This document shows positions 24,604-57,591 of a stretch of 64,000 nucleotides of DNA, piece by piece. Position 1 is the first letter of the stretch, and every line of letters starts with the position of its first letter. This DNA is from a virus. A program made the translations under genes and the position numbers. The stretch spans positions 18,653-82,652 of IMG/VR virus record IMGVR_UViG_3300034092_002634; one strand, given 5' to 3'. The notes below the pieces were generated by a model. It saw only the letters and a program-made list of their open reading frames with translations, was not told where the DNA came from and ran no database searches.

Positions 24604-27178
24604 CGACGCAGAGTTGGCGTTAATTGAGGTTTTGGAGGATCCTGTGTGGTTGAACGAATTCCTTCGCTCTACAAATAACGGCGATATGAACCGTTCAAAC
24701 TGGCCTTCCGAGGAATTCACTTTTCGCCCTTATCAAAAAGAAATCTTGACCGACCAGACACGACACGTAGTAATCACTGGTGGCCGAGCAATCGGAAAAT
24801 GCCAACCAGCCTCCGCTAAGGTTTTTACAAACGAGGGGTATAAAACAATTACGGATCTTCTTAAGAAGCCATCTTTTGTTACCTATGGTTATTCCGTGAA
24901 CGGTGATTTTACACAACGGCGTGCTTTTGTGCGTAAAGACAGGTGGAAGAAGTGCTACTCAATTACTACTAAATCAGGACATATGCTTAAGGCAACGGAC
25001 GTTCATCCTGTAATGACTCCAAAAGGATTTATCTTAATGGCGGATCTTCAAGTCGGTGATTTAGTTGCGGTTATGAATAAATTGCCAACTGATCACTGCG
25101 TCAGTAACACACTGAGTTGGGCGGAACTTCGCATACTTGGTTATTTAGCAGCAGGTAGTATTTACTTCAAGCCCGCAGGAGGCATTGTCCCTCGTTACAA
25201 GAGAATAGATGCCGAGATTAAAGAGATAGCAAACTCACTGTACCTCAACTATCGTAAAGACAGCGAAGGTCGCGTTTATATAGAGCGCATGAAGGCTGGC
25301 GGAGTCCGTCACTATCTGAATCAGCTCAAGATTGAACTTGGGGCTTACGGCAAAGACTATAGACGAGTTTTTAAACTTGACTGGCTAAAGACGCAGCGCA
25401 CTGAAAACATAAAAACGTTTCTCGAGGCTGCTTACGCTCAGCACGGTGAGCTGACTCTCGATCGCGTGGCTATTAAACTGCACAACTGGAAATACGTGCA
25501 GGACTGGCAAGAACTTCTGCTTTACTTCGGCGTAAAAACGCGATCGTACAAGGTTGCTGATCACGCAGACGAGCATCACATATTTGACATAGACGACTCA
25601 CAATGGATTGTTGAATCGTACGACAAAAACGCCGCTCACGTTTTTTGGAACCAGTTCAAAGTTCCCGGAGTTTCGGCATCCATAAAGGATCCCGCTTTGG
25701 TATCGAGTGACTGGTACTGTTGGGAGCCCATTAGTAGTAAGCAGCGCCACGGAATGCAGCTGACATACTCTGTTCATGTTTACCACGACGAAACATACAT
25801 CAGTGAGAATGTTGTTGTGCACAATTCTGTAATTTTAGAAGATCTAATAACTTATCAGGTTCTAAACTCTGCAATCGAGTTTCCAAAAACTCCAGAACAG
25901 CTTATGGTTACGCCTAACAGCAACCAATTGAATCCTATTCTAGACAAAGTTATTTTAAAGTTTACAATTTCCCCGCTGCTTAAGGACTTTTTGAACAATA
26001 ACGTAAACCGATCTAAAGGTACGTTAGACTTTCAAATGGGTACTCGAAGACATCGGTTAAATGCGCGTATTGCAGGCAGTCGCGGTGAAAATAACTTGGT
26101 TGGTCTTCACATTCCCAAAATTATGGGAGACGAGTTTCAGCTGTTTCCCATGCCTGCATTTGATCAAATGCAGCCAACGCTAAATACCTGGGAACCGAAA
26201 GTGGAAGAACGATACTTCGGTGTTCCTAACGGAATGAGAAATACGGCTTTGTATGTCTTAGACGTAAAAACACCAAAGTTTAAGAAGTACCGTATTCCCG
26301 CACCAAATAACCCTTACTTTACAAAAGAGGACTGGGACGATGCTTTGTCTAAATACGGTGGTGAATCTGCAGATATCTTTCAGCAGTTAATTCTGGGTAA
26401 GCACGGATCTCCCTCGTTCCAGGTTATTTCTCGTGATCAAATGAAAATACTGCCGTTTGATTTCTACACGTATCGATACAGTTCCAACGAAAAAGATAAA
26501 GGTAGAACATATCAAGAGGCTTTGCCAGTCGTCAAGATACCCAAGTGCGACAGCGTTATTTTCGCAATAGACACCGGCTTTAGCGATCCGACAATTATAC
26601 AAGTAATTGGATTGATTGATAATGTTTGGCATTCGCTGGTTCGTTACAGAATACAGCGTATTGACTATCCGGAACAAGAAAAAATTATAGACTACCTCGC
26701 GCGCGGGTACAACGCAAGCAGAATCGCCATCGACGTAGGAGCTGGCGGCGGAGGGGCAGGAATTGTACAGAGTCTTAAAACTCGTCCCGAATTCGCCTCA
26801 AGTAATTACGCAGCCAGAATAGAAGCAATTCAGTTCAACGAAAAGGTGGGCGTAGGCTCTATCTCCGACGAACAGGAAATAACTGAGTCGTTTAAAGCTT
26901 GGGCAACCACTGAGTTAATTCGTCAAATTACCAACGGGAATCTTGTATTTTCCGAGGTAGACGCTGAGGGTATTTCACAGTTAGAGCGCGTAGCTCGACA
27001 ACGCAGAGCTTCAGGACACATGCACTACTACGTCGTATCCCCACGCGGACACGGTGAGAGTAATGATGACCACATCTACGCAAGCTATCTTTGTTTTATT
27101 GGCGCACTTCGTCTTCCGGTGGTTGCTCCTAAAAGCAACACATTGGCACGATCAGCAGCCTATCACACAGTGAGGTGA
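24584..27178 (+). CDS. terL: Terminase large subunit (intein-containing)
   Basis: RPYQ Q motif, Walker A GGRAIGK|S, Walker B IMGDE, nuclease AIDTGFSD...DDH. Confidence 0.9.
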   Translation: MLKAKIDDAELALIEVLEDPVWLNEFLRSTNNGDMNRSNWPSEEFTFRPYQKEILTDQTRHVVITGGRAIGKCQPASAKVFTNEGYKTITDLLKKPSFVTYGYSVNGDFTQRRAFVRKDRWKKCYSITTKSGHMLKATDVHPVMTPKGFILMADLQVGDLVAVMNKLPTDHCVSNTLSWAELRILGYLAAGSIYFKPAGGIVPRYKRIDAEIKEIANSLYLNYRKDSEGRVYIERMKAGGVRHYLNQLKIELGAYGKDYRRVFKLDWLKTQRTENIKTFLEAAYAQHGELTLDRVAIKLHNWKYVQDWQELLLYFGVKTRSYKVADHADEHHIFDIDDSQWIVESYDKNAAHVFWNQFKVPGVSASIKDPALVSSDWYCWEPISSKQRHGMQLTYSVHVYHDETYISENVVVHNSVILEDLITYQVLNSAIEFPKTPEQLMVTPNSNQLNPILDKVILKFTISPLLKDFLNNNVNRSKGTLDFQMGTRRHRLNARIAGSRGENNLVGLHIPKIMGDEFQLFPMPAFDQMQPTLNTWEPKVEERYFGVPNGMRNTALYVLDVKTPKFKKYRIPAPNNPYFTKEDWDDALSKYGGESADIFQQLILGKHGSPSFQVISRDQMKILPFDFYTYRYSSNEKDKGRTYQEALPVVKIPKCDSVIFAIDTGFSDPTIIQVIGLIDNVWHSLVRYRIQRIDYPEQEKIIDYLARGYNASRIAIDVGAGGGGAGIVQSLKTRPEFASSNYAARIEAIQFNEKVGVGSISDEQEITESFKAWATTELIRQITNGNLVFSEVDAEGISQLERVARQRRASGHMHYYVVSPRGHGESNDDHIYASYLCFIGALRLPVVAPKSNTLARSAAYHTVR
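24800..25825 (+). mobile_element. Intein (342 aa) with degenerate LAGLIDADG-like region
   Basis: Starts CQPASAKV, block B ATDVHPVMT, ends VVVHN followed by S+1; removal restores GGRAIGKS. Confidence 0.92.
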
Positions 27179-32471: not shown

Positions 32472-33937
32472 ATGCAGTTTGATCAGAATCTGCCAAACCC
32501 ATGGCCCGACGATTTGTACTGGTTTGACCTGTACGATCGGTTCCCTTTACTCGTCAGGTACAGAAGTTTTTACTCGACTGACTTTCAAAGTAGAGAGGAC
32601 AACGTGCAAGTATGGTATTACGGTAAGTATGCCAGTATGGATGCAACTCCGGAAAATCATATTGACGTAGTGAATCGACTTCTGGTACACTTGGAAGCGA
32701 GTGAATTCTTACAGTGAGGTGTTTTATGGAAGAGAATGTATTGCCACAGGGCGAAGTACGGATTGAATATCCGTTTCCATCCTGCCCGTTGGGATTCGCG
32801 CTATTTACTCACGCGGTAAACAGCTATGAATTGTGTCTTGTTGAAGTCATAACCACGCAGATCTTGCTACGAATTGGCACTTTCGAAACGATAGCCGAGG
32901 TGCAAGAAGAATACAGGAACTTTGTCGACACGTTTGCAGTTTCTATGCGCCAGATTGATTGGAACGATTAAGGCGATTACGCTGAAAGGAACAGGAATGA
33001 CGTACTATTCTTCAGTTCGGGAAAAAGGAGTGTGGGTAGCATGGGGTTTCTACGATCAAGCACCTTCCAGCATCTTCACGTTTCTTGAGGAGACCGTCCG
33101 CACCTCGACAGTGTTTCGCATGTCTGGTGTTGTCAAAGTGTGGTGTGTGGGTCACAAGCACAGGCAGCATTTGGCGTTGGTGCTCTGCTCGAATCCTGAG
33201 GTTGCTCGCGACTACAAATATTGCGTATTCTGGTGGAACGAGGAGAATCGTTCAAGCATTGACGGTATGGTTTTGCCTGAGTGCGAGAACAACGCGCAAG
33301 CCTTTTACCGAATCGGTATGTGCGAGCACAGAGAACCGATTACACAAGTGTACGAAGGCACATCGGTTGGCGAACATGTTGTAGTTTGGTACCGCTGGAC
33401 ATCCGAGAAGGAGCTTGCAAGCTATGAATGAATTTACATTAGAATGGGTACAGGTGAGTCCTATTGACTCACCTCTCCTTTTTGGATCGACACAACTTGA
33501 GCGGTACAAGCTTATGTACGGTTTTATGCCTCGAAACATTGAGTTGGTTTTCTGGCATCATGATGGCGAGATTCAGAATTTTATTGTTCCACTTGAGGAC
33601 AAGGAAGACTCTTACACAATCGAGCTCAGTGTTACACGGTTTGACGATTATAACCTGCTTATTAGCCGCACTGACACCAAGGATCTGGCATCTGCTCGGG
33701 CCTGTGTCGACTTCTACAAGAAACTCTGCACGCGAGGACTAGACGATGAATTTGAATAGATATGATACAATAAAAGAGCCACACAGTGGCCGCTCGAAAA
33801 TTTTTGAATGGTATAGGAGTTTACGTATGGAGCATCTTGTTGGACTGATTATGAGTGGCGTTTTTATTGTTCTTGTTGTTTCTAGCGCGTGGTACATGCT
33901 CACACTCTCCGAGCGCGGAGAGTCTGTTGATGAGTAA
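32472..33937 (+). CDS. Run of five small hypothetical ORFs (32472-32717, 32714-32971, ~32997-33431, ~33424-33759, 33746-33937)
   Basis: Overlapping/coupled ORFs with RBSs; no recognisable motifs. Confidence 0.5.
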
Positions 33938-35324
33938 TGAAGATATTCCAGCATTTTTAGGTATTATGCCACGGTGGGTTGTCTATCAACTTCACACAGC
34001 GGATCACCAGATTGACGACTTGTTCGAGGTTGTTTTGGACTTGGGACGTGTTCCCGAGGCACGCTACCGAAACGCAACAATTCTTTTAGGCGACCGGGAG
34101 GTCACTGACTGGGATCTTGAAGAGTCGGTTAAAATGCTGAAGTTCGGTGAAGACAACCGTGCAGGCCTTCCCCGCATGCTTCACCGCATTTCAGCTATTC
34201 GCAGCCGCTCTGGCAAGATTGTGGGTCTTACGTGTCGATTTGGGCGAGCTATTACCGGTACGATCTCCCTGATTGAGGACTTGGTGGCATCTGGCAAGAG
34301 CGTGCTCATTCTTGGCCGCCCCGGTGTTGGTAAGACAACCATGCTTCGCGAGACCGCCCGTGTGTTGGCCGACGAGATGAAGAAGCGTGTCATTATTGTC
34401 GACACGTCGAACGAAATCGCAGGTGATGGGGATATTGCACATGATGGCATTGGTCGCGCTCGCCGTATGCAGGTGCAGCGCCCAAGCGAACAGCACGCAG
34501 TCATGATTGAGGCAGTGGAAAACCACATGCCTGAGGTTATCATCATTGATGAGATTGGCACTGAACTGGAAGCGCTGGCCTCGCGTACCATTGCTGAACG
34601 CGGTGTTCAACTCATCGGTACGGCTCACGGTCAGTTACTCGAGAACCTCATGGCCAATCCGACGTTGTCGGATCTGGTGGGTGGTATCCAAAGCGTCACT
34701 CTTGGGGACGAGGAAGCTCGTCGTCGGGGCACGCAGAAGACCGTTCTCGAGCGTAAGCAACCACCGACGTTCGATGTCCTTATCGAGATCCGTAGCTGGG
34801 ATGAAGTCCTTGTCTATGACAACGTGGGTGAGGCAGTCGATTCCTTGCTTGCTGGCGAGGCTCCAGAGGGCGAGCAGCGCACAAGGGGTACCGATGGTAC
34901 CATTACGGTAGAACGCGTCGTCTCAGAGGCAGCTGAGGGCCTAGCTGGGCAATCTGCGCAAAGCGTTCGTCGAGCACACAACAAGGCGCCTACCGCGAAA
35001 GGTCAGCGTCAGCGGGGAGACGGTCTTTCCGAGGTTACCAGCTTTCCCAAGATCAAGACTGTACCGGTGACGCAGCGCATCTACGCGTTTGGCTTGAACC
35101 GGAACAAGTTGGAGAAGGCGATTCAAGTGACTGGCGTACCTGCTACAATTGTGCACGACATCGAGGAGGCCACGATGATCTTTACGCTGAAGAGCTATTA
35201 TCGTCAGGGCTCGACTCGGCTTCGCGGGGCACGGCAAAAGAACATTCCGGTGCACGCGTTGCGTTCTCCGAGTGTGAATCAGATTGAACAGTCTCTGCGT
35301 AAGGTATTTCAGATAGAGTACTAA
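33930..35324 (+). CDS. Ycf45/SpoIIIAA-like AAA ATPase lacking the R3H domain
   Basis: EVVLDLGRVPEAR, GRPGVGKTT, VDTSNEIAGDGD, EAVENHMPEVIIIDEIG, GTAHG. Confidence 0.9.
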   Translation: MSNEDIPAFLGIMPRWVVYQLHTADHQIDDLFEVVLDLGRVPEARYRNATILLGDREVTDWDLEESVKMLKFGEDNRAGLPRMLHRISAIRSRSGKIVGLTCRFGRAITGTISLIEDLVASGKSVLILGRPGVGKTTMLRETARVLADEMKKRVIIVDTSNEIAGDGDIAHDGIGRARRMQVQRPSEQHAVMIEAVENHMPEVIIIDEIGTELEALASRTIAERGVQLIGTAHGQLLENLMANPTLSDLVGGIQSVTLGDEEARRRGTQKTVLERKQPPTFDVLIEIRSWDEVLVYDNVGEAVDSLLAGEAPEGEQRTRGTDGTITVERVVSEAAEGLAGQSAQSVRRAHNKAPTAKGQRQRGDGLSEVTSFPKIKTVPVTQRIYAFGLNRNKLEKAIQVTGVPATIVHDIEEATMIFTLKSYYRQGSTRLRGARQKNIPVHALRSPSVNQIEQSLRKVFQIEY

Positions 35325-36970: not shown

Positions 36971-37024
36971 CCCCCTCACGTTACGGCAGAACACGTGAGG
37001 GGTTCTTTTTTTTTTATTTTTTTT
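36971..37024 (+). terminator. Strong terminator before early array
   Basis: CCCCTCACGT/ACGTGAGGGG stem followed by a long T tract. Confidence 0.75.
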
Positions 37025-37223
37025 CTGGCGTCTGCTGGCACTCTGGGGCTTTCTAGGGAGCATTGAACATTATGTTCAGTTGTCGAAACGGGTTGATGCT
37101 TTTTGAAATTTTTCAGTATGACAAAGGTATGGAAGGTGTAGGTATGTATAGGGTTTTTGACTACCTACCATCTACTGCTTGTGTAAGTAGTAGTAATCAA
37201 CTGTCTTTGAAAGGACAAACATC

Positions 37224-37388
37224 ATGTCGAGCATCATCATCATCACCGTCGTCGTCATCGTCGTCACCATCGTCGTTATCATCGCTATCCCTCAGTTGAT
37301 CATGAAGGGTGCAAAGACGTCTCATGAGCTGTGGGTTGAGCGCAACAACGAGGCAATCGCTCAGAACAATGCAGCGCGCCGCAAGTAA
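37224..37388 (+). CDS. Small membrane protein (54 aa; not in ORF track)
   Basis: GAAAGGA RBS; MSSIIIITVVVIVVTIVVIIAIPQLIMK...RRK*. Confidence 0.65.
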   Translation: MSSIIIITVVVIVVTIVVIIAIPQLIMKGAKTSHELWVERNNEAIAQNNAARRK

Positions 37389-37390
37389 CC

Positions 37391-37456
37391 ACAGCGAAAC
37401 AATCTACTCAGTAATGAGTAGGTTGTATGCAGTTTATAACTGCACTGACGAGCTGT
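37391..37456 (+). ncRNA. Hammerhead ribozyme, type II
   Basis: ACAGC GAAA CAATCTACTCA gtaa TGAGTAGGTTG TA TGCAGTT tat AACTGCA CTGACGA GCTGT: complete core and three stems; GUA cleavage after 37427. Confidence 0.92.
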
Positions 37457-37498
37457 TCGTTAGTAATCAGTATTGTCTCTTTGAAAGGACAAACAACC

Positions 37499-37981
37499 AT
37501 GTTCGCAGTCATCATCACCGTCTTCGCAGTCATCGTCGCCATCCGCATCATCAGCAGCATCACCGTCGAGATCACCACCCACCAGTACGATGTCGAGTGT
37601 GAGTGTGTCAAGTGTCAGCAGACCAGCAAGGAGATTCGCAACATGAGTAAGTTGAACGTCAAGTCCATCGAGGAATACGCAGCCATCTACGCTCAATGGG
37701 TATCAGTCGACACCTCAGTCGAAGAGTACTCGGCAGCTGCAGTTGACGTCATCATCACCACAACCGGCACTTGGAAGATGACTTACGTCGTCAACAAGTC
37801 GGTTAAGTTCACTGGCCGCACGTCATACACCGGCAAGACTTCGGGTTGGTTGTTCGAAAACGTCAACACCGGTGCAAGCGACATGTACCTCCAGATCAGT
37901 GGTAAGTCCTCCGCATGGGAAGCTCGCAACTGGTTCGGTAACGGTAACTTCGCTGTCAACACCAAGGTCGCTGTCAAGTAA
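37499..37981 (+). CDS. Hypothetical protein (TM helix plus YDVECECxxC motif)
   Basis: GAAAGGA RBS before MFAVIITV. Confidence 0.6.
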   Translation: MFAVIITVFAVIVAIRIISSITVEITTHQYDVECECVKCQQTSKEIRNMSKLNVKSIEEYAAIYAQWVSVDTSVEEYSAAAVDVIITTTGTWKMTYVVNKSVKFTGRTSYTGKTSGWLFENVNTGASDMYLQISGKSSAWEARNWFGNGNFAVNTKVAVK

Positions 37982-38063
37982 CTAACCAACTAGCAACGCT
38001 CACCTGCTACAGGATGTGAGAATTATCAACATTGCCCAATAAGGGCTAGAGAGAGTGACTACA

Positions 38064-38378
38064 ATGGAGAACATGCTCAACATCACCGCAATCGCCGCCA
38101 ACGACTGGAACGTCTGGACCTGTGCTCACTGTGAGTCGTGCAACTTCGGTGACACGAAGGTCTGCATCGTGTGTGACATGGGCCGCTGGACCAGCTGTGA
38201 CATCGAGTGCGAGCACAACCGGCCAGCACCTGCTTCGGTAGCGGTATACGTCAACTTGGATGAGGTTGTCCAGGTGCCGTTGCCATACACCAACATCCAT
38301 CAGGTGCCTGCTAATTACAAGGAACTGATGGACATGGAGCGCGAAGGTGCTCTGCAGTTGGAAATGCGCTTGTCGTAG
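38064..38378 (+). CDS. RanBP2-like Zn-finger small protein
   Basis: WTCAHCESCNFGDTKVCIVC. Confidence 0.55.
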   Translation: MENMLNITAIAANDWNVWTCAHCESCNFGDTKVCIVCDMGRWTSCDIECEHNRPAPASVAVYVNLDEVVQVPLPYTNIHQVPANYKELMDMEREGALQLEMRLS

Positions 38379-38478
38379 TCTTGTTCACCTGCAACGCTCA
38401 CCTGCAGTAATGGATGTGAGATGTCCGTATGTCCGTATGTGTGTTTATTATTATGTTCTTTGAAAGGACAAAACTACC

Positions 38479-38844
38479 ATGAAGTCAGTCATCAACGCAG
38501 TCATCGGCATGTTCGTGTTGGTCGTCAGCCACTTGGTCATCTACTTCGTTCGCAACCTGAAGATGGGCTTCATCTTCGGCGTCGTCATGCTCACCTTGCT
38601 TGGCTTGGGCATCAGCGGCGAATTGCCTTCTATCGACATTGTCACCGCTAAGTGGGTAGGCATTCTGACCGTTGGGTACGCAGCTGTCGTTGCTGTATTC
38701 GGTGTGTTCGTAACCGCTTACGAGATTCGTAAGTACATGGCCAAGGAAGCAAAGGGCCAAGACACCTGGATTGAGCGGATTAACCTTCTTAAGGTTGTCT
38801 ACAATGTTCCAGGATACAGCTTCCGCAACAACATCACCAAGTAG
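38479..38844 (+). CDS. Small membrane protein
   Basis: Three hydrophobic helices; RBS. Confidence 0.6.
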   Translation: MKSVINAVIGMFVLVVSHLVIYFVRNLKMGFIFGVVMLTLLGLGISGELPSIDIVTAKWVGILTVGYAAVVAVFGVFVTAYEIRKYMAKEAKGQDTWIERINLLKVVYNVPGYSFRNNITK

Positions 38845-38955
38845 TCAACACCGGAGTGGGCGGCAACCGGTCAACTTGCCCACCATTGGAGAAGTGATGC
38901 ATCTCCAGCATAGATCAGCATCCTTGCTGCGTTTGCAGCTAGAGGGGTATTACCA

Positions 38956-41423
38956 ATGGGTAAGTACTATCGGTCCTCGGTGGTTGTTCGTTGGTTGGTG
39001 CACAGTCTGAGCGATTGTGCTATGAGACTGATGCCAATTGGTTTGTCTGATGTCGAGGACGGTAGTCTTCGGTGGAAAGCAGCCAACTGGCTGATGCGCA
39101 AGACTAGCGACTGGGCTGTCGCGCTTAAGAAGGTCTAGTCCACCGTGGAGTAAGCGGATAACCACGTTAAAAACTTGCTTACCATTGGAGAAGTAATGCA
39201 ACTCCAGCATAGCACTGCATTCTCGGATGACAATCATCTGAGCTATAGCTGCCATTGCAGCTAGAAAGGTACGCCTTACCATGGGTAAGAAGTACAACAC
39301 GTCCGCAGTCACCGTTCGTCCGATTGCCACCGGGGAGCTTGCCTTCCTGGTCGAGGCATGGGAGGGCATCAAGCCTTCCCGCAAAGCCGCGGTGACGGTG
39401 CGGATTGCTCGGGAGACCGAGCGTCCGGCCAACTGGCGGCCAAAGACCGACAAGATCGGTCGCCGTCCTCGGATTGAGGCGGTGGTGGCTGAGCGAGAAG
39501 TGGAGGAAGGGCCGCACGAGTGCGACTTCTCGATCAGCCGGTGGGAGGATGTCATCTACCACCATAGCGGGTGGATTGACGTAACTATCGCACGGTGTGA
39601 GTGCGGTAGTTACAACATCACTCCGGAAGACCCGGAGATCCACATCTCCGAAGACGACCACGCTCACCAAGTGTGGATTATTAAAAAGTATAGGTGTAAT
39701 CCTGTGGCGTACGTTTCCGAGTCGTACGAGGGCAGTTCGCCCTTCAAGAAGCTCGACCGGTAGTCACACGTGGAGTCAACGGATAACCACGTTAAAAACT
39801 TGTTGACCATTGTATATACATAATTCTGTGTATATACTAGCTCTCGAAAGGAGCACGGCTATGGAATTCCTTGAGGTATTAGTTCGCGGTAAGACGGTCA
39901 AAGATGTCAGCGTCGAGCAGATCGCGCGCAACATCTACGAAGTCACGGTGGGCCATGGCGGCGGGGAAGAGGGCCCCGACGGTGAATGGCGTGGCTACGT
40001 AATCGGTCGTAGCCAAATTATCATCGCCAGTAGCATGTACGATGCGTGCTACAAGGCGCATCACTTAGCCAAGATAATTGGCTAAGTGTGTTGCAGAGTG
40101 GGCGGTAACTGCATAACTTGCCCACCATTGCATACAGTATAATTCGGTATTGTATGCTAGCTCTCGAAAGGAGCATATCATGCATAAGTATGATGTAGAG
40201 TGTGAGTGTGTAGTGTGTGTGGCGTGGACCGACCGGATCGGGCATAAGTTGGAAACTGTGGCAACATACGTTGACAACAGTGGACACGATTACGACATTG
40301 AGTGCGAATGCACTGAGTGTCAGAAGATCACGGTGGCCGAGCGCGAAATCCAGATGTATGTCCTGGGGGAACCAATCTCTGTCCCGGTTACGATCAATCC
40401 AGAGGTTCAGGAATTCGCTGACAAGAAGTTGTCGGATAGTATTCGGTTCGATCAGCACTAATCAGCACTAGAGCTCTCGGCAAAGCTCGTTAAACACCGA
40501 GTAGAAGGGAATGTCTATGTATGACATTCTGGTTGTGACGGTGTTGGCATTCGTGATGATGGCCGTGTTATTGAAAGGTGGTCGGTAATGAGTCCTGCAG
40601 AACAACTATACGTCGAGAAGTTGTGTCGCCAGTACTATCAGGCGCTCTATGGCGTAGATTACGTCGTAGAGTTCGGGCATATCTTGCTGTTTCCGCATAA
40701 GCATGCGGAGGCTGTGGTCAAGCTCGAGAAACTCATGGAGAATGTCGGTTACCAGGTAGTTCGCCTGGTAGAAATTCGGAAAGGGTAAACTAGTGCACAA
40801 GATCACCCTGTTAGACGTTCGGCATAGTGCTGCCGAAAAGCTGGCCAAAGAGAAACTGCGGGTAGAAGTACCCGCAGAATACAACGGGGATTGGTTCCCC
40901 GCTGTCATGTACGTACCTGCGTATCCCCGTCAGGAGGATCACAGCGTGGATGCTTACACGTTCAAATGTGTGAGCGTCAACGCTAGCCTGAAACGTCTTA
41001 GACGGCTCTACACGGCCCTTGGTGGACGCGCAATGCCTCCGTGGTCCGGTATATTGGTTGACGGCGTCGAGGTCAACGGGAACGTCAAGGACGGCGAGTA
41101 GTCCACCTGGAGTGAGGGGTAACCAGTATAACTTCCTCATGTACTAATTTAGCTCTTGAAAGGAGCGTGTCATGCACAAGTATGACGTTGAGTGCGAGTG
41201 TGTCGAGTGTCAGAAATCCTGGAGGGTGGAGCACATCTGGGAGACCGTCAACTCCCAGGCGGAAGCAGACTGGACTTTCTCGGGTGACACCGAGGACGAG
41301 GTCGTCGCCGCTGCGTACAAGCGCAAAGAGACTCTTCGCCCCACTGAAGAAGAGTGGATGGCTGTGGAGGACAAGTTCTTTCTCTACAAAAAGGGGAAGT
41401 TCTTGGGAGAGTTTTCCCTTTAG
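38956..41423 (+). CDS. Small early genes: 38956-39138, 39281-39763, 39861-40085, 40180-40461, ~40517-40588, 40588-40788, 40793-41101, 41172-41423
   Basis: Each has an RBS or translational coupling; separated by repeated structured elements. Confidence 0.55.
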
Positions 41424-41497
41424 TAGTCCACGTGGTAGTCGGATAACCACGTTAAACACCGACATCATTTTATGTGCAAAAGCACAAGGAGAATCCA

Positions 41498-41974
41498 ATG
41501 CCTAATTGGTGCAGTAACGTTGTTCAACTCAGCAAAGACGGGTACGACTTTACGAGCATGGAAAAACGCATCCCTACCGAGGGACTCTATGCGCAATTCC
41601 TTCCCGCACCCGAGGGACTTGACGACCACCAACTGACGGATTGGTGCTACGAGAATTGGGGCGTTAAGTGGGACACCCAGAACGCAGATGCCGGCGTCGA
41701 TGGCGACCGCATTCAACTGTGTTTTGATAGCCCATGGAGCGCACCACGGCAGTGGCTCGCCTATATGGTGAGCATCGGGTTCGATGTCCGAGGTGCATTC
41801 TGGGAGCCAGGCATGGCCATGGGCGGTGTCTACACTACCTTGCACGATGGAGCACTAGTTGCTCCAGCATTGGAGTGGACGCAGGACAACCTCGTCGAAC
41901 GGGGTAGCGAAATGTACGAATATCTCATCAGTTACGGACTGATCTCAGAAGATGATGAAATGATCAACGACTAG
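41498..41974 (+). CDS. DUF1281/YubB ferredoxin-like family protein
   Basis: MPNWCSN, WCYENWGVKWD, FDSPWSAP, EPGM. Confidence 0.8.
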   Translation: MPNWCSNVVQLSKDGYDFTSMEKRIPTEGLYAQFLPAPEGLDDHQLTDWCYENWGVKWDTQNADAGVDGDRIQLCFDSPWSAPRQWLAYMVSIGFDVRGAFWEPGMAMGGVYTTLHDGALVAPALEWTQDNLVERGSEMYEYLISYGLISEDDEMIND

Positions 41975-42043
41975 CTCGCACGAGGTAACCGGCAAACCTC
42001 GTTAAACACCGGTATCTTTTTATGCTCACGAAAGGAGCACGGT

Positions 42044-44323
42044 ATGTTGTATTGCATGATGGCGGTGTCTCGATGGCTTACTGGTGACCCGGACTTCGGG
42101 TACGATGGGGAGATGATCCCCAAGGTCACCGCGGTGATCTACATCCGTGAACAGCCCTTTGAGGACTGGGAGCGGGAGGAAGGCAGGAATATCTGGAAAA
42201 TCAAGCTCGGTGAGTCTACTGTTGTGTCAATGCATAGGTGGACAACTGATCTCTCTCCAGTGGAGATCAGTACCAAGCATGACTGCGAAGTCATTGACTG
42301 GTCCAAGCGGTAAGTGGAGATCTCGGAGTGAGGGGATAACCGATGTAACTTCCTCAATAGTTATATTAGCTCTTGAAAGGAGCAACGCTATGCAAGTACT
42401 GCAAGCACGGGGAATTATCCTGGAAAATCTGGAAGCGCTTCGCGAGTTCAAGCCCGAGGACTTGCGGCTGGTTGCGTTATACAACGCAGCAGCAGGGCAG
42501 TCCTGGGCCGAGTTCAACCTTATCCGCACAACGTGTGCGGACTGGGACGAGCTCACCTACAACAACTTTGAGGAGGAAGACCTCAAGAATTTGTGGGACG
42601 AACTCTCTGAGCATTTCAGCAAAATCTGGGAAGGAACCAAGTAATGCGAGTACGTGGCAAGCAGCCGCATGTCTATCGTGAGTCAGAAACGGCTACGATA
42701 GCGCGGTACACCAACTTGCTCCCTCCTGTGTACGAGGCAAGTGCACAGGAGTGGAAGGTGTTTGGCCGTCAGGATACCATTGTCCGTGTTGGTACGCGGG
42801 CGACTATGCTGACGTATCTCAAGGGTAGGCGCGATCAGTATACTCGTATGCACGGATACGAGGATTTGACTGACCCCTGCCTCAGGCTGAGGTGGGATAC
42901 TAGTCTGCGGTGCTTTCACGTGACAGAGCCGCAGTTGGACCTACCCGTGTTCTCAGGTACTAAGTACATGTGTACGTGGTATCTGGTTGGCCGGTCGGAC
43001 GAGTTCCAAGGCCTGTAGTGTGTTGACAACGCTCACCTGTGTCGGATGTGAGAAAGTAATTATAGCCCTGAGGGGCAAGAAGGAGAGTGTGACTATGGGT
43101 AAGGTTATCACCGCAGCGGTCTTCATCAGCATGTTCAACAGCTCATTCCGGGACAGGCTCGAGTGGATGAGTGAGGAAGTTCGCGACCTCACGGTGGACG
43201 CGCTCACCCGGGAAGGCTACGACGAGGACGATTTGCGTCGGATGTCGGATGCCTTTGCCAAGCTGGAGGAAAAGTCCAGCGACTTGATCGAGACAGACTA
43301 CGCCAACGATCTGCTGAACGTGGACGAAGAGAGTCTCGATGAGGGTTACTACTCGGATGGTGAAGACGAGTAGTAGGTAGCGGACTGGCAACTCTCGCCT
43401 GCGTCGGATGCGAGGAAGTAATGTATAGCCCTGAGGGGCAAGAAGGAGAGTGTGACTATGGGGACTCAGCATTGCGTCTTGATCCAGGACCGTTTCGACA
43501 ACGAGGCCAAGTTCAACTTGGTCATCACCCACGACGTACCCTTCCACCCGGAAGCGGTCTTGTGGATTGCTCAGCTGTACACGGCAAAGCGTTGGGGGTC
43601 ACAGCCCGACGTGTACCGCACTGCCGAGCTCGATGTCAGCGTCGACTGGAACGACATCGTGTACGTTCCGGCGCTAAATGTCCTGGACTTCGAGTCCTCG
43701 GACTACTGGCCAACACAGAAGCAGCTGAGGTTGGCTCGGATGGCGTTGGATTCGTACCGTATGTTTTATGACGAGTTGGCAAGGCAGGAGAAGATTATCT
43801 CCGGCTATGTCCGTCAGGAGATGCACAAGCAGTACGGTGAGGACACCGTCGCTATGCGTCTTCCCACCTTCCACAGCCGTGCTTCGGCATTGGACATCCT
43901 AGTTCATCTGGCACGGTAAGTCCACACGAGGTAGCCGGCGAACCTCGTTAAACACCGGTATAGTATTATAAGTGCAAGAGCACAAAGGAGAGCAAGATGC
44001 GTTACTCAATCAAGTTCGTGGCGAGTGCGAAGAAGTCCGTTCCCTTCGGCCTGGGTATGAGCAAGAAGTTCCACGACGCTGTGTGGAAGGGTGGGTGTAA
44101 GCGCCAGTGGCACGACATTGGTATCAAGGCCACGGAGTACTGCCTGCGGACACGTTCGTGCATGATCGACGTCGAGGCCTCGGACGCTGCTGAGTTGTCG
44201 TTTAAGCAGGAGGTGTGCCAGAGCCTGGTCGACTACATCTGGCAGGCAAGCAACAAGCCCTTTACAAGCGTAGAGGTGTTCGAGACGTGGAGTCACAAGG
44301 TTATCTACAAGGCTGATCTCTAG
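42044..44323 (+). CDS. Small early genes: 42044-42313, 42390-42644, 42644-43018, 43095-43373, 43458-43919, 43997-44323
   Basis: AAGGAG RBSs; separated by repeated structured elements. Confidence 0.55.
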
Positions 44324-44398
44324 GAATGTCTGGCAACTCCCACCTGCGACGGATGTGGGCAAGCAAAGCAATGTGCAAGTGCACAAAGGAGCAACAGC

Positions 44399-45259
44399 AT
44401 GTCTGATGTCAAAGTCCCTGCAGCAGAGCGTATTGGGTCCGCGATGGTTGAGAAGCTGATCGAGTCACTCGAAGCGGGAGTGGCAAACGGTCAATGGAAG
44501 CAGCCGTGGACAACGTCAAAGCAGATCAATGCGGTCACCGGGGCTAGCTACTCCGGTGCCAATGCGATCAACTTGATGTTGATTGGCGCGGAATGCCCTT
44601 ACTGGGCTACCTTCAATCAGTGGTCGACAGCCGGTTACCGTATTCCACAGGGTACGGAATCCAGCGGTTTTGTCCACACCCCTCCGAGACGGAACAAGAA
44701 GACGGAGAGCGGCGAAGAGATCACCATATTCGTCCCATCAAAGACGTTTGTGGTGTTCAACGGTTCACAAGTCGTTGACGCCGATGGCAACCCGTTCACG
44801 TGGGAATCTTCGCCACCTGTTCCGGTTCTTCCAGAGATCGAGGCCTTCTTCGCCAAGCACAATCCAACGATTGTGCATGACGATCCCAGTAGTGCATATT
44901 ATCATCCGTCGAAAGACTTGATCAATATGCCGCCGATCAACTCGTTTGTTGACAATGTTTCATACTATGGAACGTTAGCGCACGAGATGATTCACTGGAC
45001 TGCACACAAGGACCGGCTGGATCGCGATCTGTCTCAGTATGGCCGTGATCGTAAAGTACGCGCATTCGAAGAACTCATAGCTGAGTTCGGCGCGGCCATT
45101 ATCGGTAGTGAACTTGGTCTAACTACTGAGGTGAGAGATGACCATCTGCAGTATCTAGCTTCTTGGCTATCCTCCCTTAAGGAGGATAAGACGGTACTGC
45201 GGCGGGCGGTTACCGAAGCAGGTAAGGCTTCAGCCTACGTCAGCAGAGATGCTGAGTAG
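44399..45259 (+). CDS. ardC: ArdC-family antirestriction protein (ssDNA-binding plus zincin-like domain)
   Basis: WKQPW, N..TG..YSG.N, WATFNQW, VFN, AYY.PS.D.I.MP, HEMIHWT, EELIAE, YLASWL. Confidence 0.9.
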   Translation: MSDVKVPAAERIGSAMVEKLIESLEAGVANGQWKQPWTTSKQINAVTGASYSGANAINLMLIGAECPYWATFNQWSTAGYRIPQGTESSGFVHTPPRRNKKTESGEEITIFVPSKTFVVFNGSQVVDADGNPFTWESSPPVPVLPEIEAFFAKHNPTIVHDDPSSAYYHPSKDLINMPPINSFVDNVSYYGTLAHEMIHWTAHKDRLDRDLSQYGRDRKVRAFEELIAEFGAAIIGSELGLTTEVRDDHLQYLASWLSSLKEDKTVLRRAVTEAGKASAYVSRDAE

Positions 45260-45304
45260 TTTACATATACCGGTTAGCTCTCACAGAAAGGGGGTGATTA
45301 CCAC

Positions 45305-45607
45305 TTGCCACCATTCGGATTCATGGTGTTAGTTTTCTTCCATCTCCGGTACAAGACTGGAGGTGGTCGGTTCGCCTGGAGTCTGTACTCACTGCGCGCG
45401 TCGCTCAAGTATCAGGACGGTTCGATCTACGGTCGAATACTTTACGACGGGTCGCGTCCGTTGCTAGAGACCTGGGAGAACGGCGTGCGTATCTGGGTAA
45501 GTCCTGACTACGATGCGTATATGGCTGAGTCTCAGCGACGTATCGATCAGGCTGCCAAAGAGTACCGCGTCACGGAGACTTTCGGTCCTGGCGATTCCAT
45601 GCCCTAG
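45305..45607 (+). CDS. Hypothetical protein
   Basis: ORF with GGGGG RBS. Confidence 0.45.
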   Translation: MPPFGFMVLVFFHLRYKTGGGRFAWSLYSLRASLKYQDGSIYGRILYDGSRPLLETWENGVRIWVSPDYDAYMAESQRRIDQAAKEYRVTETFGPGDSMP

Positions 45608-45624
45608 TGTCTGATTATTAATCA

Positions 45625-47588
45625 GCGGTAGGGTACTGTGCCCTACCGCATATGGGAGATGCAACTACTATGCGTAAGCAAGCACAAAAGACCGCAGTGA
45701 CCGTAGTCGAGAACACTGGCAACACCAAGCTGGTTGGTACGTCCGCGATGTACAACTGGATCACCACCTACACCGAGGTGGGGCCGACCTGTCCTACGAC
45801 GTGTTGGTTCCACCCCGAGTCTCTGTATGCCGACGATCTCAAGAAGCTCAAACTCAAGGCCTGCTACACCAAGCGTGGGCATGTGTCCTTCAGTGTTGCG
45901 GCTTCCAAGTTCGCTGGTGCAGATACGTCTGACGGTGCGTTGACTCCTGTGCGTGAGCGCTTCGATCGCATCTTCTTGATGCACGAGGCCGGACGCAAGA
46001 CAGTCGACGGCATTCGCTTCCAGACGGGTGGCGATATTCTCCATCCAGTTACGGGTCAGCCGTGGGTGGAGTTCATCGACCTGATCCTGTACGTTATCGA
46101 GCGTGCATTACCTCTGGGGATACCAGTCATCGGCTTCACCGCTACGTGGCGGTATCCCGAGGTGCAGGTGCTACGTCGCAAGTTCCATGCTTCTGTTCAG
46201 ACGTTTGCTGATGCTCGGCAGGCGACTGAGATGGGTTGGACCGTGGCGTATGCAGTGGGCGAGCAGGACGTACTACAGGCTGTCAGTGAGCTCAGGAGTC
46301 TCGGTCAACGTGCTGTATACTGTCCTGAACAGGCAGGTAAGGCAAAGAGCTGCAGTGACTGTGGTCTGTGTGCAGTGGCCGATAGCAGTAGACTCGACAG
46401 AGTTCTTTGGGAAGAGAACTACATGCTGTATCGGAAGCGTTTTGTGTTGACCGACATCCCAGTGTCGATCGTACTCAAGAACCACTAGTCGGTAAGTCTA
46501 TGACCCGGGGACAATTCGGTTCCCGGGTCTATTACAAAGGAGTGTGTAGGGTTATGGAAAAGCGCGCATTGATCCGGTGGAATGACGGTGAAGATCTCCA
46601 GGTGTTGATTGGCATCGGTAAGTGGGATGGTAAGTCGAACGACGACCACATCTTCTACTGGATGGAAGAGTTGACTGACTACCAGGTTGGGTACCGCAAC
46701 GGTGATGGGTGGACCATCATCCAGATCGAGAAGGAGACTGCGTTGAGTACTAAGTGGACATTGAATCGGCCTGAGCTGGCAGACAACGACGAGGAGGTAG
46801 TGGTGGGTCTCGACTACAACAACGAGCGGTCAGACTTCAATCTGGCGCGCGTACAGTTTGTCGAGCTGTACAACGGTATCCCTGAGCCATACTTCCACAT
46901 CAGCTTCGACGAGGCTATGTGCTACAGTGTGTCTGCCAAAGAGTTGTTGTCCGACACCTACAAGACCATCTACGTACCAGGTGCTTGGGGTGCGACTCTC
47001 TGCTGGATTCCGATCCACCGAGCGTAGTTGTTGTGGTCCATGCGGGATAGTAATGTGCTATCCCGCTTACCTATAGGAGGATGCAATGAGCATCAAGATT
47101 ACTGTGACTGAAAAAGTGCTGAAGGACTCGTTGATCTCGGCCGTGTCGGATCTCTATCATGTCGACAACTGCGAAGAGTTCGGCGAGTGGATGTTCGTGC
47201 GGTACTTCGGTAACCGCGCTGACCTCGAGAACGATCTGTCCGAGCAGCTGGGTCACTCTAGCTACAACATCGGCATCTCGCTTCTCAACCTGGCACCAGA
47301 CTCAGATGAGTTGCGGCGTGACTACTTCCGCCACAATCACCGCAACAACTTGCTCACACTCGAGCAGGCGGTGCATATGATTCAGTTCGGTCACGAGATC
47401 TGGGTCTGCAACTACAATGCAGATCAGGAGATTGATCTGTTCACGACCGTCACTATCTCGGACTTCGACGAGGACCGTGACGAGTCATTGACCGAGTGGC
47501 TCAAGGACATGCAGGCCTGGGCTAAGCAGGACTGGGCTAAGTAGTCTACACAGTGGGGTCCCTGCGGAGTAGTAAAGTGCTACTCCGC
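45625..47588 (+). repeat. Three 9-bp hairpins with TA(A/C)(T/A)GTG loop
   Basis: 45625-45649, 47042-47066, 47564-47588; stems differ in sequence but pair fully. Confidence 0.7.
45670..46488 (+). CDS. Cys-rich GP88-like phage protein
   Basis: GNTKL, TCPTTC..ACY, RFQTGGD, CPEQ....SCSDCGLC. Confidence 0.6.
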   Translation: MRKQAQKTAVTVVENTGNTKLVGTSAMYNWITTYTEVGPTCPTTCWFHPESLYADDLKKLKLKACYTKRGHVSFSVAASKFAGADTSDGALTPVRERFDRIFLMHEAGRKTVDGIRFQTGGDILHPVTGQPWVEFIDLILYVIERALPLGIPVIGFTATWRYPEVQVLRRKFHASVQTFADARQATEMGWTVAYAVGEQDVLQAVSELRSLGQRAVYCPEQAGKAKSCSDCGLCAVADSSRLDRVLWEENYMLYRKRFVLTDIPVSIVLKNH

Positions 47589-48183
47589 TTTCTTATAAGG
47601 AGCGCGAGAGTTATGCATCACACCTACGTGGCAATTGAGCTTTCATCGGAAGACATGGAGCAGGCTCTAATTCAGATCAGGGACGTCGTCGAGCATGATC
47701 CTGAGGAATGTGACGTCAACGATACGGAGATCGAGTTGGCTCCTAAGCTGGCTTCTCTCTGTATCCTGTTCCTGCATGAGTTCGCAGAGGCACAGGCGCA
47801 AGGTAAGGTCAACCTCGATTCAATCTGGCTACCGAATTACGAGCTTCGGCTCTTGGTGGCTACGGCCGCGAAGTTATTAATGGCAGCATCTGAAGAGAAA
47901 GAGGGTGAGTAACATGGCTAAGTTCACTGTAATTGAGTACATGGACCCAGCAGGCGACGTCGACAGCATTGAAGTTGACTTGGCGTGGCCACTTGCAGAC
48001 GTTCAGCTGCTACTGGCGTACCAGACACGGCGTCACGAGACACAGTGGAAGGAGCACTTCGGTCCTACTGACTACTTCAATCGTCAGTACCCGCGGATGA
48101 TGGCCGTGATTGCGGATGCTAAGCGTCGTTTCGGTAACGGTACCCCTATCGATGAGCTGACTATCATCGACTGGCAGGAATAG
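46554..48183 (+). CDS. Small early genes: 46554-47027, 47086-47544, 47613-47912, ~47914-48183
   Basis: RBSs; separated by hairpin repeats. Confidence 0.55.
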
Positions 48184-48185
48184 TC

Positions 48186-48253
48186 ACGGCGAAACGGTCC
48201 ACTCACACGCGTGGGTGGGCCGTATGCAGATCACATCTGCACTGATGAGCCGT
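48186..48253 (+). ncRNA. Hammerhead ribozyme, type II
   Basis: ACGGC GAAA CGGTCCACTCAC acgc GTGGGTGGGCCG TA TGCAGAT cac ATCTGCA CTGATGA GCCGT; cleavage after 48224. Confidence 0.93.
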
Positions 48254-48825
48254 CAGGTTCTCTCAGTAGTACAGCAGCGAGGGAATTGATGCATCTTGTC
48301 TGCTGTATTTTTTATGGCAGAGGCCATAGCTACAACAAGTGGGGGCTATTTTTATGTGGGAGCCCTCTTTTTATGCCGGCGCTCGTTGATGATGACGGAC
48401 ATGATTGCAATCGCAAGGGAGGGGTGCCGAGGGGAACCAAGCGCTAGGGGGTGCCGAGGGGGATGCCGCTTTGTGCGCTTTTTCACATAAGCGTTTGTAC
48501 ACATTTTCACAAGCTCACGACGATTTCTGCGATCTTGCACAGCTTTTTGGCCAAAGCAACATAATTGAAACTAATGTTGCTTTGGAAATGCACGCACTTT
48601 GCACAGACTTTGGCCAGATCGTAAAGTTTCCTTCATTTTTTAAATAAAATTGTGAACATATTCACAATCTTACCCTACTTTGTGCACGTTTTCACAGGCC
48701 AGCATGGCTTTCTGCTGCCATTTGTGCTACTTTTCTGCACTTTTAAAACCGAAAATTGATCCCAAGGAAGTGCTGCGACAATGTTATTCATGGCTTGTGC
48801 AGGGATGCGTGTGTCTATAGACATA

Positions 48826-56480: not shown

Positions 56481-56864
56481 CTAAACGTCTAAATCTTGTT
56501 CTGGTAATTCCGTAAATGTATCGTAGTACGCATTAAACACATTCCGAGCTGTAGTGTGTAGTTGCGGCGGAACTTCGCGAAGTACACTTCCGTCGTCTAT
56601 TTGAAGTTTCCGCCCGAGTAACTCAAAAGCAAACTTTAGGGCATCCTTTGCAACCCCTGCGTGTAAATTGTGGCGCTGTGCTATCTCGTGAAGTGCATAG
56701 CCTGATCCCCAGTCTTCCAGCATCTGCATAGTTAGCGGGTGGTTATCCCGTAAGAAGTGGCTGTTAGCCTTAACCACCATTTCCAAATTGATTCGATCCT
56801 CGTCATTCAGTCGGTTTGCAAACCAGTCTCTGAATAACTCACGTAATAAAAGACGACTCTTCAT
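56481..56864 (-). CDS. Sigma-region-4-like HTH protein
   Basis: GYALHEIAQRHNL. Confidence 0.45.
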   Translation of the reverse strand: MKSRLLLRELFRDWFANRLNDEDRINLEMVVKANSHFLRDNHPLTMQMLEDWGSGYALHEIAQRHNLHAGVAKDALKFAFELLGRKLQIDDGSVLREVPPQLHTTARNVFNAYYDTFTELPEQDLDV

Positions 56865-57591
56865 AATTTATAGGCGGCCAGCACAGTTCGACATGAGCAC
56901 AGATCCGATTACAAAAATATCCTTGATCAATCTTTGTAAACTCTGTATCGTTAAGTATGTGCACGAGCGACTCCTCCAATTTCTGTATTTTTGTATCGTA
57001 GTCCACCATTACAGCAGCCTCGACCAGATCGAGTGTCCGCAGATGATGCCAATAGACTGCCTTTGGTTTTACTCCAAATAGTTGTTCGTAAGCCCACACA
57101 TAAATCAGCAGTTGCGGATTGTTTGCGAGTTCGGGGCCAGTTGGTTTTTTACTACCACTCTTGTGATCGATAATGCAACCATCCTCGGTGATCATGTCGA
57201 TAAAACCGCGCATGAGTACTAGCGGATTTTCTGCTGGGAATGGAAGTCTAAATCCATATTCAATACGAGCGGGAACAAACTGATCCCAATTCAGTCCACG
57301 CAGGATTGTTTGACCTAATTGTGAAGCCTTACCGATAAGGTTAGAGGCCACTAATCCCTTCTCGCTGCCTACTGCCGAGGCAATTGCCTCGTTAAAGTAG
57401 TTTGAAAACACCGGCAGAAAGTTTGTTTTGCCTGCATAGTACTCCTCGATCGCGTGATGCAGTGCTGAGCCCATGACCGTGTACACATGCTTGTTTCCCT
57501 CGAGGCCTTCGATGTACTGCATTTTGTACAAGCGCGGGCAAGTCTTGTAGAGGTTGAAGCGAGAAGCTGAAAAATCGGGCAAAGTACTCAT
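56839..57591 (-). CDS. PD-(D/E)XK RecB/Cas4-like exonuclease
   Basis: SASR...CPR, GSALH, GFIDM..IIDHKSG, QLLIY, C-terminal Cys cluster. Confidence 0.85.
   Translation of the reverse strand: MSTLPDFSASRFNLYKTCPRLYKMQYIEGLEGNKHVYTVMGSALHHAIEEYYAGKTNFLPVFSNYFNEAIASAVGSEKGLVASNLIGKASQLGQTILRGLNWDQFVPARIEYGFRLPFPAENPLVLMRGFIDMITEDGCIIDHKSGSKKPTGPELANNPQLLIYVWAYEQLFGVKPKAVYWHHLRTLDLVEAAVMVDYDTKIQKLEESLVHILNDTEFTKIDQGYFCNRICAHVELCWPPINYEESSFIT

Follow-up and report, generated by a model that had tools for sequence, protein, structure and literature searches.

Motif B, an H-type pseudoknot RNA of 27-32 nucleotides, lies just past stop codons in the early gene arrays of uncultured freshwater phages

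The stretch of DNA analysed here, referred to as the window, comprises 64,000 nucleotides (nt), namely bases 18653-82652 of IMG/VR record IMGVR_UViG_3300034092_002634, which holds the 82,652-bp and apparently complete genome of an uncultured phage. The phage proteins that were recognised include a family A DNA polymerase (PolA), a DnaB helicase, a class II ribonucleotide reductase, ThyX, RecA and an ArdC-like protein. The closest cultured PolA sequences are those of Pseudanabaena phages and, with an identity of only 29%, they are too distant to identify the host. Between about 37.3 and 48.3 kb, small co-directional genes without known families form an array, and the subject of this work is motif B, a short element that recurs behind stop codons in this array. 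An earlier note, made from the letters of the window alone, had described motif B as a pseudoknot with five copies on the + strand, and a search with the pattern CAACKCYCRCCTG-N(4-12)-GGATGYGRG bears this out: the window contains exactly five matches, all on the + strand and at the places named in that note, whereas 100 dinucleotide shuffles contain none. A near-identical pattern gave no sixth match across the whole 82,652-bp genome. The five copies are set out below, with the two helices called stem 1 (S1) and stem 2 (S2), their 5' and 3' strands marked a and b, and the connecting loops L1, L2 and L3.

37991..38020, + strand: copy 1, 51.8 bits; S1 starts 9 nt past UAA 37979-37981; S1a UAGCA (37991-37995), L1 ACG (37996-37998), S2a CUCAC (37999-38003), L2 C38004, S1b UGCUA (38005-38009), L3 CAGGAU (38010-38015), S2b GUGAG (38016-38020)
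38383..38420, + strand: copy 2, 57 bits, including a leader GUUCAC (38383-38388), the knot itself at 38389-38420; S1 starts 10 nt past UAG 38376-38378; S1a CUGCA (38389-38393), L1 ACG, S2a CUCAC, L2 C, S1b UGCAG, L3 UAAUGGAU, S2b GUGAG
43026..43052, + strand: copy 3, with a short S1, after UAG 43016-43018; S1 ACA/UGU (3 bp), L1 ACG, S2 CUCAC/GUGAG, L3 GUCGGAU
43388..43414, + strand: copy 4, with a short S1, after the double stop UAGUAG 43371-43376; S1 GCA/UGC, L1 ACU, S2 CUCGC/GCGAG, L3 GUCGGAU
44333..44359, + strand: copy 5, with a short S1, after UAG 44321-44323; S1 GCA/UGC, L1 ACU, S2 CCCAC/GUGGG, L3 GACGGAU

The pattern also retrieved multi-copy relatives from IMG/VR, and a covariance model, built from 18 copies with S1 alone as its structure, found further and more divergent copies in those relatives at its first search. 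After a metagenome scan, the covariance model yielded 97 copies, 69 of them distinct, on about 30 contigs of related uncultured freshwater phages, which carry 5-8 copies per genome and whose PolA proteins are 57-85% identical to that of the window phage. With no more than chance matches in a scan of prokaryotic species genomes (see below), the family seems to be confined to one uncultured freshwater phage lineage. In the 69 distinct sequences, to which the figures on fold and conservation refer, 95.3% of the 688 pair cells of the whole fold S1a-L1-S2a-L2-S1b-L3-S2b are paired, compared with 20-45% when the partners are slid against each other, and the observed pairing score was attained by none of 500 shuffles. 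S2 is paired throughout (100%), with double changes from U-A to C-G (14), from C-G to U-A (5) and from A-U to G-C (4), and occurs as CUCAC/GUGAG, CCCAC/GUGGG, CUCGC/GCGAG, CCCGC/GCGGG, CCUAC/GUAGG, CUUAC/GUAAG and UCCAC/GUGGA. As the covariance model held S1 only, this complementarity was not imposed by the alignment. S1 is paired in 90.7% of its cells, includes types such as CUGCA/UGCAG, CCGCA/UGCGG, CCUCA/UGAGG, CUAGCA/UGCUA and CCACA/UGUGG, and covaries at three positions, with 24, 17 and 6 double-change cells. Both interleaved helices thus covary, as is expected of an H-type pseudoknot. A few G-U pairs are present in the helices and all 97 copies lie on the gene strand, which together argue for an RNA rather than a DNA element. 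On sequence comparison, motif B is a genuine cis-acting RNA element, a classical H-type pseudoknot of 27-32 nt in a long polycistronic early messenger RNA (mRNA).

The architecture comprises an S1 of 3-5 bp, an L1 of 3 nt (A-N-K), an S2 of 5 bp, a single C as L2 and an L3 of 6-8 nt, made up of N2-4 followed by RGAU; the lengths of L1 and L2 are fixed and that of L3 varies by 2 nt. Twelve positions are invariant in all 69 sequences (A3 column numbering): the two junction-proximal S1 pairs C12-G24 and A13-U23, the first L1 base A14, the junction-proximal S2 pair C21-G36, the L2 base C22, the end of L3, G33 A34 U35, and G40, the G of the distal S2 pair. These bases cluster at the helix junction. 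The earlier note had thus rightly seen a compact, covarying fold with conserved junction bases, and its single invariant C holds in every distinct sequence; two other features need narrower wording. Of its invariant unpaired AC, the A is invariant but the second base is C in 57 sequences, U in nine and G in three, and of its invariant GGAT, GAU stands but the first G is an A in four sequences (G in 65), so that the element reads RGAU. The S1 and S2 pairings that it listed are present in the sequence, but the outer part of S1 in copies 4 and 5 is not conserved. There, it had read a compensatory swap of GAC/GTC for GTC/GAC; the orthologues L009b and L147 read GTC...GTC and the real S1 of this subtype has 3 bp, GCA/UGC or ACA/UGU. 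Two subtypes can be distinguished accordingly: the commonest has a 5-bp S1 preceded by a leader GUYCAC, and the other, to which window copies 3-5 belong, has the 3-bp S1 just given together with an L3 of GUC or GAC followed by GGAU. Between copy 3 and its orthologue in the closest relative (L009a), ACA/UGU is replaced by GCA/UGC and CUCAC/GUGAG by CUCGC/GCGAG, which are two compensatory double changes. The pseudoknot sequence of L009a is identical to that of window copy 4, and conversion between copies may therefore be the source of the change.

Several further contacts around the core were considered. The base directly 5' of S1 is an unpaired C in 80 of 86 contexts, and an A follows S2b in 68 of 86. 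The conserved leader GUYCAC, unpaired and directly before S1, is found at window 38383-38388 and in most long-S1 copies of the relatives. Its UYCAC could pair with GUGAG of S2b, and the two are complementary in 76% of cells, but compensatory change is essentially absent and pairing fails where S2 varies, and a conserved leader helix was rejected for this lack of covariation; the leader may instead belong to a competing fold or provide the context of a cleavage site. On inspection of the alignment, the AGAU variants lend no support to a further helix in which the leader would pair with GGA of L3. Nested folding gave a hint that C22 may pair with G33, with A34-U35 bulged, in an 11-bp coaxial stack, both positions being invariant and thus beyond the reach of covariation. 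A likeness of CUCACCUGC to the 16S 3' end and of GGAUGUGAG to an extended Shine-Dalgarno (SD) sequence is lost when S2 covaries, and mimicry of SD or anti-SD was dropped. In 59 of the 69 variants (GUGAG, GUAGG, GUAAG), the invariant A-U-G at the border of L3 and S2b runs into UGA, UAG or UAA, which makes a 'start-stop' mini open reading frame. It is probably coincidental, as it has no usable SD spacing and is absent in the GUGGG and GCGAG variants.

For the placement of motif B between genes, 80 distinct contexts were analysed, each with a reading frame of 40 codons or more upstream. The gap between stop codon and S1 is 5-12 nt in 75 of them and never under 5 nt, with modes at 9, 5, 6 and 8 nt, whereas the next start codon follows at widely varying distances, mostly 29-88 nt but in some cases more than 200 nt. 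It is thus the upstream stop, and not the downstream ribosome-binding site, to which the element is tied. The flanking genes fall into at least 55 unrelated protein families or clusters, from which it follows that motif B is a boundary element of a general kind. Pfam gave no match for representatives of the ten largest flanking-gene families in the relatives. The stop codons before motif B are UAG (60) and UAA (20), never UGA. This bias belongs to the whole early array (window 37000-48300: UAG 10, UAA 4, UGA 0; rest of the genome: UAA 29, UGA 22, UAG 13) and is therefore no special property of the knot. Immediately before motif B, stops are often doubled or present in two frames. Other modules occur between motif B and the next start, for instance a long hairpin in the relatives or an SD-containing hairpin. 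A hairpin or palindrome of about 24 nt, GCGRACUACACAGUGUAGAUYCGC, often lies about 10 nt after motif B in the relatives (L006:4700-4730, L010:6505-6535, L008:5280-5310 and others); the core of this element, CTACACAGTGTAG, is a near-perfect palindrome and might just as well serve as an operator at the DNA level. Small hairpins with the SD sequence in their 3' arm (GCUCUYGAAAGGAGC, GUCCAAGAAAGGAC) stand directly before many starts of the array and of the arrays in the relatives.

Motif B shares its place behind stop codons with other structured RNAs, as the earlier note had said of hammerheads. Two elements with intact type II hammerhead cores, 3 nt past a stop codon each, open and close the window array, with 15 pseudoknots of motif B and of a second family, motif A, in between:

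37392..37461, + strand: type II hammerhead-like element that opens the array, 3 nt after UAA 37386-37388, with intact GAAA, CUGACGA and GUA cores; Hammerhead_II match of 18.8 bits (E 0.065), below the gathering score of 37
48187..48258, + strand: type II hammerhead-like element that closes the array, 3 nt after UAG 48181-48183, cores intact; Hammerhead_II match of 28.9 bits (E 1.5e-4), below the gathering score
window 38850-43959: motif A, for example at 39139-39190, 39764-39810, 41424-41460, 41975-42010 and 43920-43960

With a strict regular expression, 21 type II hammerhead-like elements were found, spread over at least 13 motif B-carrying loci, and each of them lies 0-5 nt past a stop and on the same strand. 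Relatives with hammerhead-like elements include L006 (4095), L010 (5889, 6789), L093, L144, L129, L078, L076 and others, and many of these elements have an unusually long stem III of 10-14 bp. Hammerheads (HH) and motif B (B) interleave at single-gene spacing, as HH-B-HH-B-B-B in L010 and as B-HH-B-HH-B-B in L093, and the arrays of the relatives also interleave coremin-like pseudoknots with both. Most hammerhead junctions precede genes for small proteins that start with a long hydrophobic stretch. Clustered hammerheads that flank single genes have been described in phages and prophages, and a role in the processing of long phage transcripts was suggested for them (Perreault et al. 2011, PMC3088659). 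Motif A occupies the same post-stop slot with an S1 such as ACGUGG/CCACGU, a conserved (G)UUAAA(A)AC spacer and an S2 in which part of the S1 hairpin loop pairs with the stretch directly after the spacer; its likeness to the coremin motif GUCCGAAGACGUUAAACUAC, as to the 5' half of pistol, is close. A different arrangement is found in a genome whose PolA is 77% identical (G010, L213 1-3720), in which a terminator hairpin, a T-run and a conserved T-rich block TTTTTCTTTTTGTTAT(A/G) are repeated at least five times. Judged by sequence, these repeats look like a terminator-promoter cassette that replaces the pseudoknots. No pseudoknot was found in the remaining early region of G010, which is incomplete; G010-G012 are 60-89% complete, with G010 cut within the early region, and the absence of motif B there is uninformative. 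Terminator-type blocks in one genome, and motif B and hammerheads in others, indicate that different punctuation devices occupy this kind of slot.

No known family accounts for motif B. Rfam 15, a search of which the earlier note had proposed as a check, yields nothing on motif B at the gathering score in the whole window, and at E<=10, over 8.5 kb and two stretches of about 400 nt (copies 1-4), no match overlaps it on its strand. In the arrays of five relatives, only tRNAs were found at E<=0.05, by a scan that was insensitive even to the hammerheads found by the regular expression. Motif B is thus a small pseudoknot RNA without an Rfam 15 family. It has no megablast match among cultured phage records, nor is it described in the text of a catalogue that lists over 10,000 candidate RNA structures of phages (PMC10690425), the supplementary files of which were not part of the search. 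A pattern scan of 185,579 prokaryotic species genomes, one per species, gave single chance matches in coding-like DNA, with no arrays and no prophage copies, and so no host, prophage or CRISPR lead. A CRISPR-repeat mimic or solitary repeat unit was rejected, as no array match occurred in these genomes, and none of the extra single matches that a wider pattern gave in viral contigs passed the pairing test.

As motif B is tied to the gene end, is indifferent to gene identity and keeps at least 5 nt from the stop, we tentatively favour the reading that it serves as structural punctuation, that is, as a roadblock or insulator, on the polycistronic early mRNA. The ribosomal helicase acts near +11 from the P site, and its geometry was reportedly described by Takyar and colleagues in 2005. 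On this geometry, a first paired base at least 5 nt past the stop would lie at about +12 from the P site or beyond and clear of the helicase, which suggests that a terminating ribosome would leave the knot folded beside it. The folded knot would then form a compact mechanical barrier between cistrons, which would stop 3'-5' or 5'-3' exonucleases, and perhaps ribosomes sliding on after termination, at the gene boundary, so that every small early gene would be stable and translated independently of the others. In the neighbouring hammerhead slots, the same end would be served by cutting. We infer both the barrier function and its direction.

A precedent for such a device may be seen in coremin (xrRNA_C) of plant and other RNA viruses, a very small knot in untranslated and intergenic regions that stalls the exonuclease Xrn1 and scanning ribosomes and stimulates frameshifting (PMC10520033, PMC10321173). 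In coremin, a 4-bp hairpin whose loop reads YGAD or YGNNAD precedes a spacer of the GUUAAAC type, after which a second hairpin follows (PMC10520033). Motif B is likewise a very small and strongly sequence-constrained viral fold, but it lacks the loop of the first hairpin, the GUUAAAC spacer, which motif A in contrast carries, and the need for a second hairpin. Its loops and junction differ as well, the S1 loop being A-N-K + S2a + C, and its host is bacterial. Tiny mechanical pseudoknots such as coremin are equally constrained in sequence (PMC10520033), and the conserved loop bases, in which the earlier note saw a catalytic or binding core, therefore prove on their own neither catalysis nor binding. 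The punctuation reading also has several points to answer. Taken alone, each helix scores no better than -3 to -5 kcal/mol, and the helices of the short-S1 subtype amount to 3 + 5 bp. The 12 invariant junction positions seem to exceed the needs of a plain roadblock, and ordinary frameshift pseudoknots do not stall Xrn1 (PMC10321173). The anchoring to the stop could merely reflect the order of modules in tightly packed spacers, hammerhead junctions go with a specific type of downstream gene, so that the two elements are not freely interchangeable, and the host, and hence its set of exonucleases, cannot be named from a PolA identity of 29%.

In the main rival reading, motif B would be a new, very small self-cleaving ribozyme that takes on the task of the neighbouring hammerheads by cutting the polycistronic early transcript at or near the knot, with the conserved pyrimidine immediately before S1 and the junction itself as examples of possible sites. 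We consider this rather unlikely on present analysis, although the occurrence of hammerheads in the same arrays keeps a catalytic core in play. Motif B shares slot, strand and arrays with type II hammerheads in at least 13 loci, and it was through such association with other ribozymes that pistol, hatchet and twister-sister were discovered (PMC4604425). The 12 invariant positions, with unpaired A14, C22 and G33 A34 U35 clustered at the junction, the near-invariant unpaired C before S1, the fixed lengths of L1 and L2 and the lack of an Rfam family would all suit a ribozyme. The variation of L3 by 2 nt would not, and neither would the size of the element, two short helices in 27-32 nt, for we know of no natural self-cleaving class as small as this. 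Most structured motifs near ribozymes in the original ribozyme-neighbourhood screens are said not to have cleaved. Known catalytic cores are likewise absent: motif B resembles the clustered phage hammerheads in being a small structured RNA past a stop, between single genes of a long operon, but has no CUGANGA or GAAA cores, no three-way junction with an NUH cleavage site and no Rfam hammerhead score. It also resembles pistol (RF02679), a small pseudoknotted RNA that is frequent near phage genes and came to light through its proximity to other ribozymes. However, pistol has three stems, P1, P2 and P3, as well as a pseudoknot that links the P1 loop with the P2-P3 junction (PMC4604425), and a G-U cleavage junction; motif B, with its two helices, lacks P2 and P3 and gave no match to RF02679. 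Finally, the bracketing of the window array by hammerheads, with the 15 pseudoknots inside it, and the tie of hammerhead junctions to one downstream gene type suggest different roles for the two elements. That motif B is the smallest natural self-cleaving class, a two-helix knot of about 30 nt that cuts long early transcripts into single-gene mRNAs beside hammerheads, strikes us as doubtful.

Alternatively, the junction could form a specific pocket, either for an RNA-binding protein or nuclease, in which case a phage or host protein would tag early mRNAs for shut-off or stabilisation, or for a small purine-like ligand that pairs with the junction C in the style of preQ1-I. This we regard as unlikely. 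Both motif B and preQ1-I (RF00522) are H-type knots of about 30 nt (about 30-34 nt for the latter) with an invariant C in the junction-spanning strand, which in motif B links S2a to S1b and is flanked by invariant L1 and L3 bases. Many copies on a single transcript class would be in keeping with a protein operator that serves a whole regulon, and the GGAUG core resembles what we take to be GGA-type protein sites. The core is, however, broken by AGAU in 4 of the 69 sequences, C22 may simply pair with G33, and no RNA-binding or RNA-repair enzyme was recognised by Pfam among the 34 window proteins, nor any such protein among the ten representatives of flanking families. As to a riboswitch, motif B matches no riboswitch family or covariance model in Rfam, its L3 is not A-rich and its S2 excludes the SD sequence. 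The downstream SD sequence and start lie 29 nt or more away and are in no case overlapped by the knot, and no terminator follows, so that no expression platform is visible. The 5-8 copies per genome, placed between unrelated ORFan genes in a phage without queuosine or 7-deazaguanine gene context, are also unlike a metabolite riboswitch.

Motif B might further be mainly a DNA-level or selfish repeat, a cassette boundary for the recombinational shuffling of early genes in which the RNA fold is incidental, analogous to the promoter early stem-loop (PeSL) repeats of T4-type phages. Copies are very similar within and between genomes and flank diverse ORFan genes in a hyperplastic region, and the presence in L009a of the sequence of another paralogue suggests conversion. 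We nevertheless consider this reading very improbable, as compensation keeps two interleaved helices intact in 69 distinct sequences, which recombination does not need and a cruciform cannot form, and as the orientation always follows the genes and G-U pairs occur; a recombination role could, moreover, coexist with an RNA function.

The weakest reading, a recoding signal that stimulates read-through or frameshifting at the upstream stop, is largely refuted and in our estimate barely credible, since, although -1 programmed ribosomal frameshifting and murine leukaemia virus (MuLV) read-through signals place a knot just 3' of the ribosome pause codon (5-9 nt 3' of the site), which the 5-12 nt spacing of a compact H-type knot in 75 of 80 contexts fits, the possible extensions are short (medians 15, 18 and 12 codons in frames 0, -1 and +1), with similar fractions of at least 40 codons in all frames and none favoured, double or in-frame second stops are common, a slippery site is not conserved and the upstream genes are unrelated. 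In structure, motif B does resemble the compact H-type pseudoknots of luteovirid -1 frameshifting, such as that of beet western yellows virus (about 28 nt), and of MuLV read-through, with a 5-bp S1, an L1 of 2-3 nt, a single junction nucleotide, an L3 of 6-8 nt along S1 and a position 5-12 nt 3' of the codon at which the ribosome stops. It differs from them in having neither a slippery site nor an extended frame, in an S2 of 5 rather than 3 bp, in an L3 that ends in RGAU and is not A-rich, and in its 5-8 copies per genome after unrelated genes of a double-stranded DNA phage. A suppressor tRNA or alternative code was also rejected, the three tRNAs being Leu-UAA, Met and Arg-UCU, as was a promoter, for sigma-70-like sites are as frequent as expected in the promoter check (9 against 9.3) and none lies at motif B.

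The other features of the window noted in the course of the analysis are as follows.

window 24584-27178: large terminase gene with an intein-like insertion (Intein_splicing, under the Pfam cutoff)
window 33855-35324: gene for a 489-amino-acid protein, an AAA ATPase joined to a phosphotyrosine-phosphatase-like domain
window 37499-37981: gene for a protein with an N-terminal hydrophobic stretch (MFAVIITVFAVIVAI...), after the hammerhead-like element
window 39830-39860, 40150-40178, 41145-41165, 42020-42042 and others: SD-containing hairpins
44399-45259: ArdC-like gene, 39 nt downstream of copy 5 of motif B
window 56839-57591: gene for a Cas4/PD-(D/E)XK nuclease, adjoining RecA

Apart from terminators, RNase sites and a few hammerhead clusters, little is understood of how double-stranded DNA phages control single genes on their long early transcripts. 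To these devices, motif B adds a very small and well-supported fold with a conserved junction core, which is present many times per genome and in the slot of a ribozyme. If it cleaves, it would constitute a new and minimal ribozyme class. If, as we tentatively favour, it acts as a barrier, it would be a bacterial-virus counterpart of the exonuclease- and ribosome-stalling knots of eukaryotic viruses, and would provide a 30-nt insulator part for synthetic operons.

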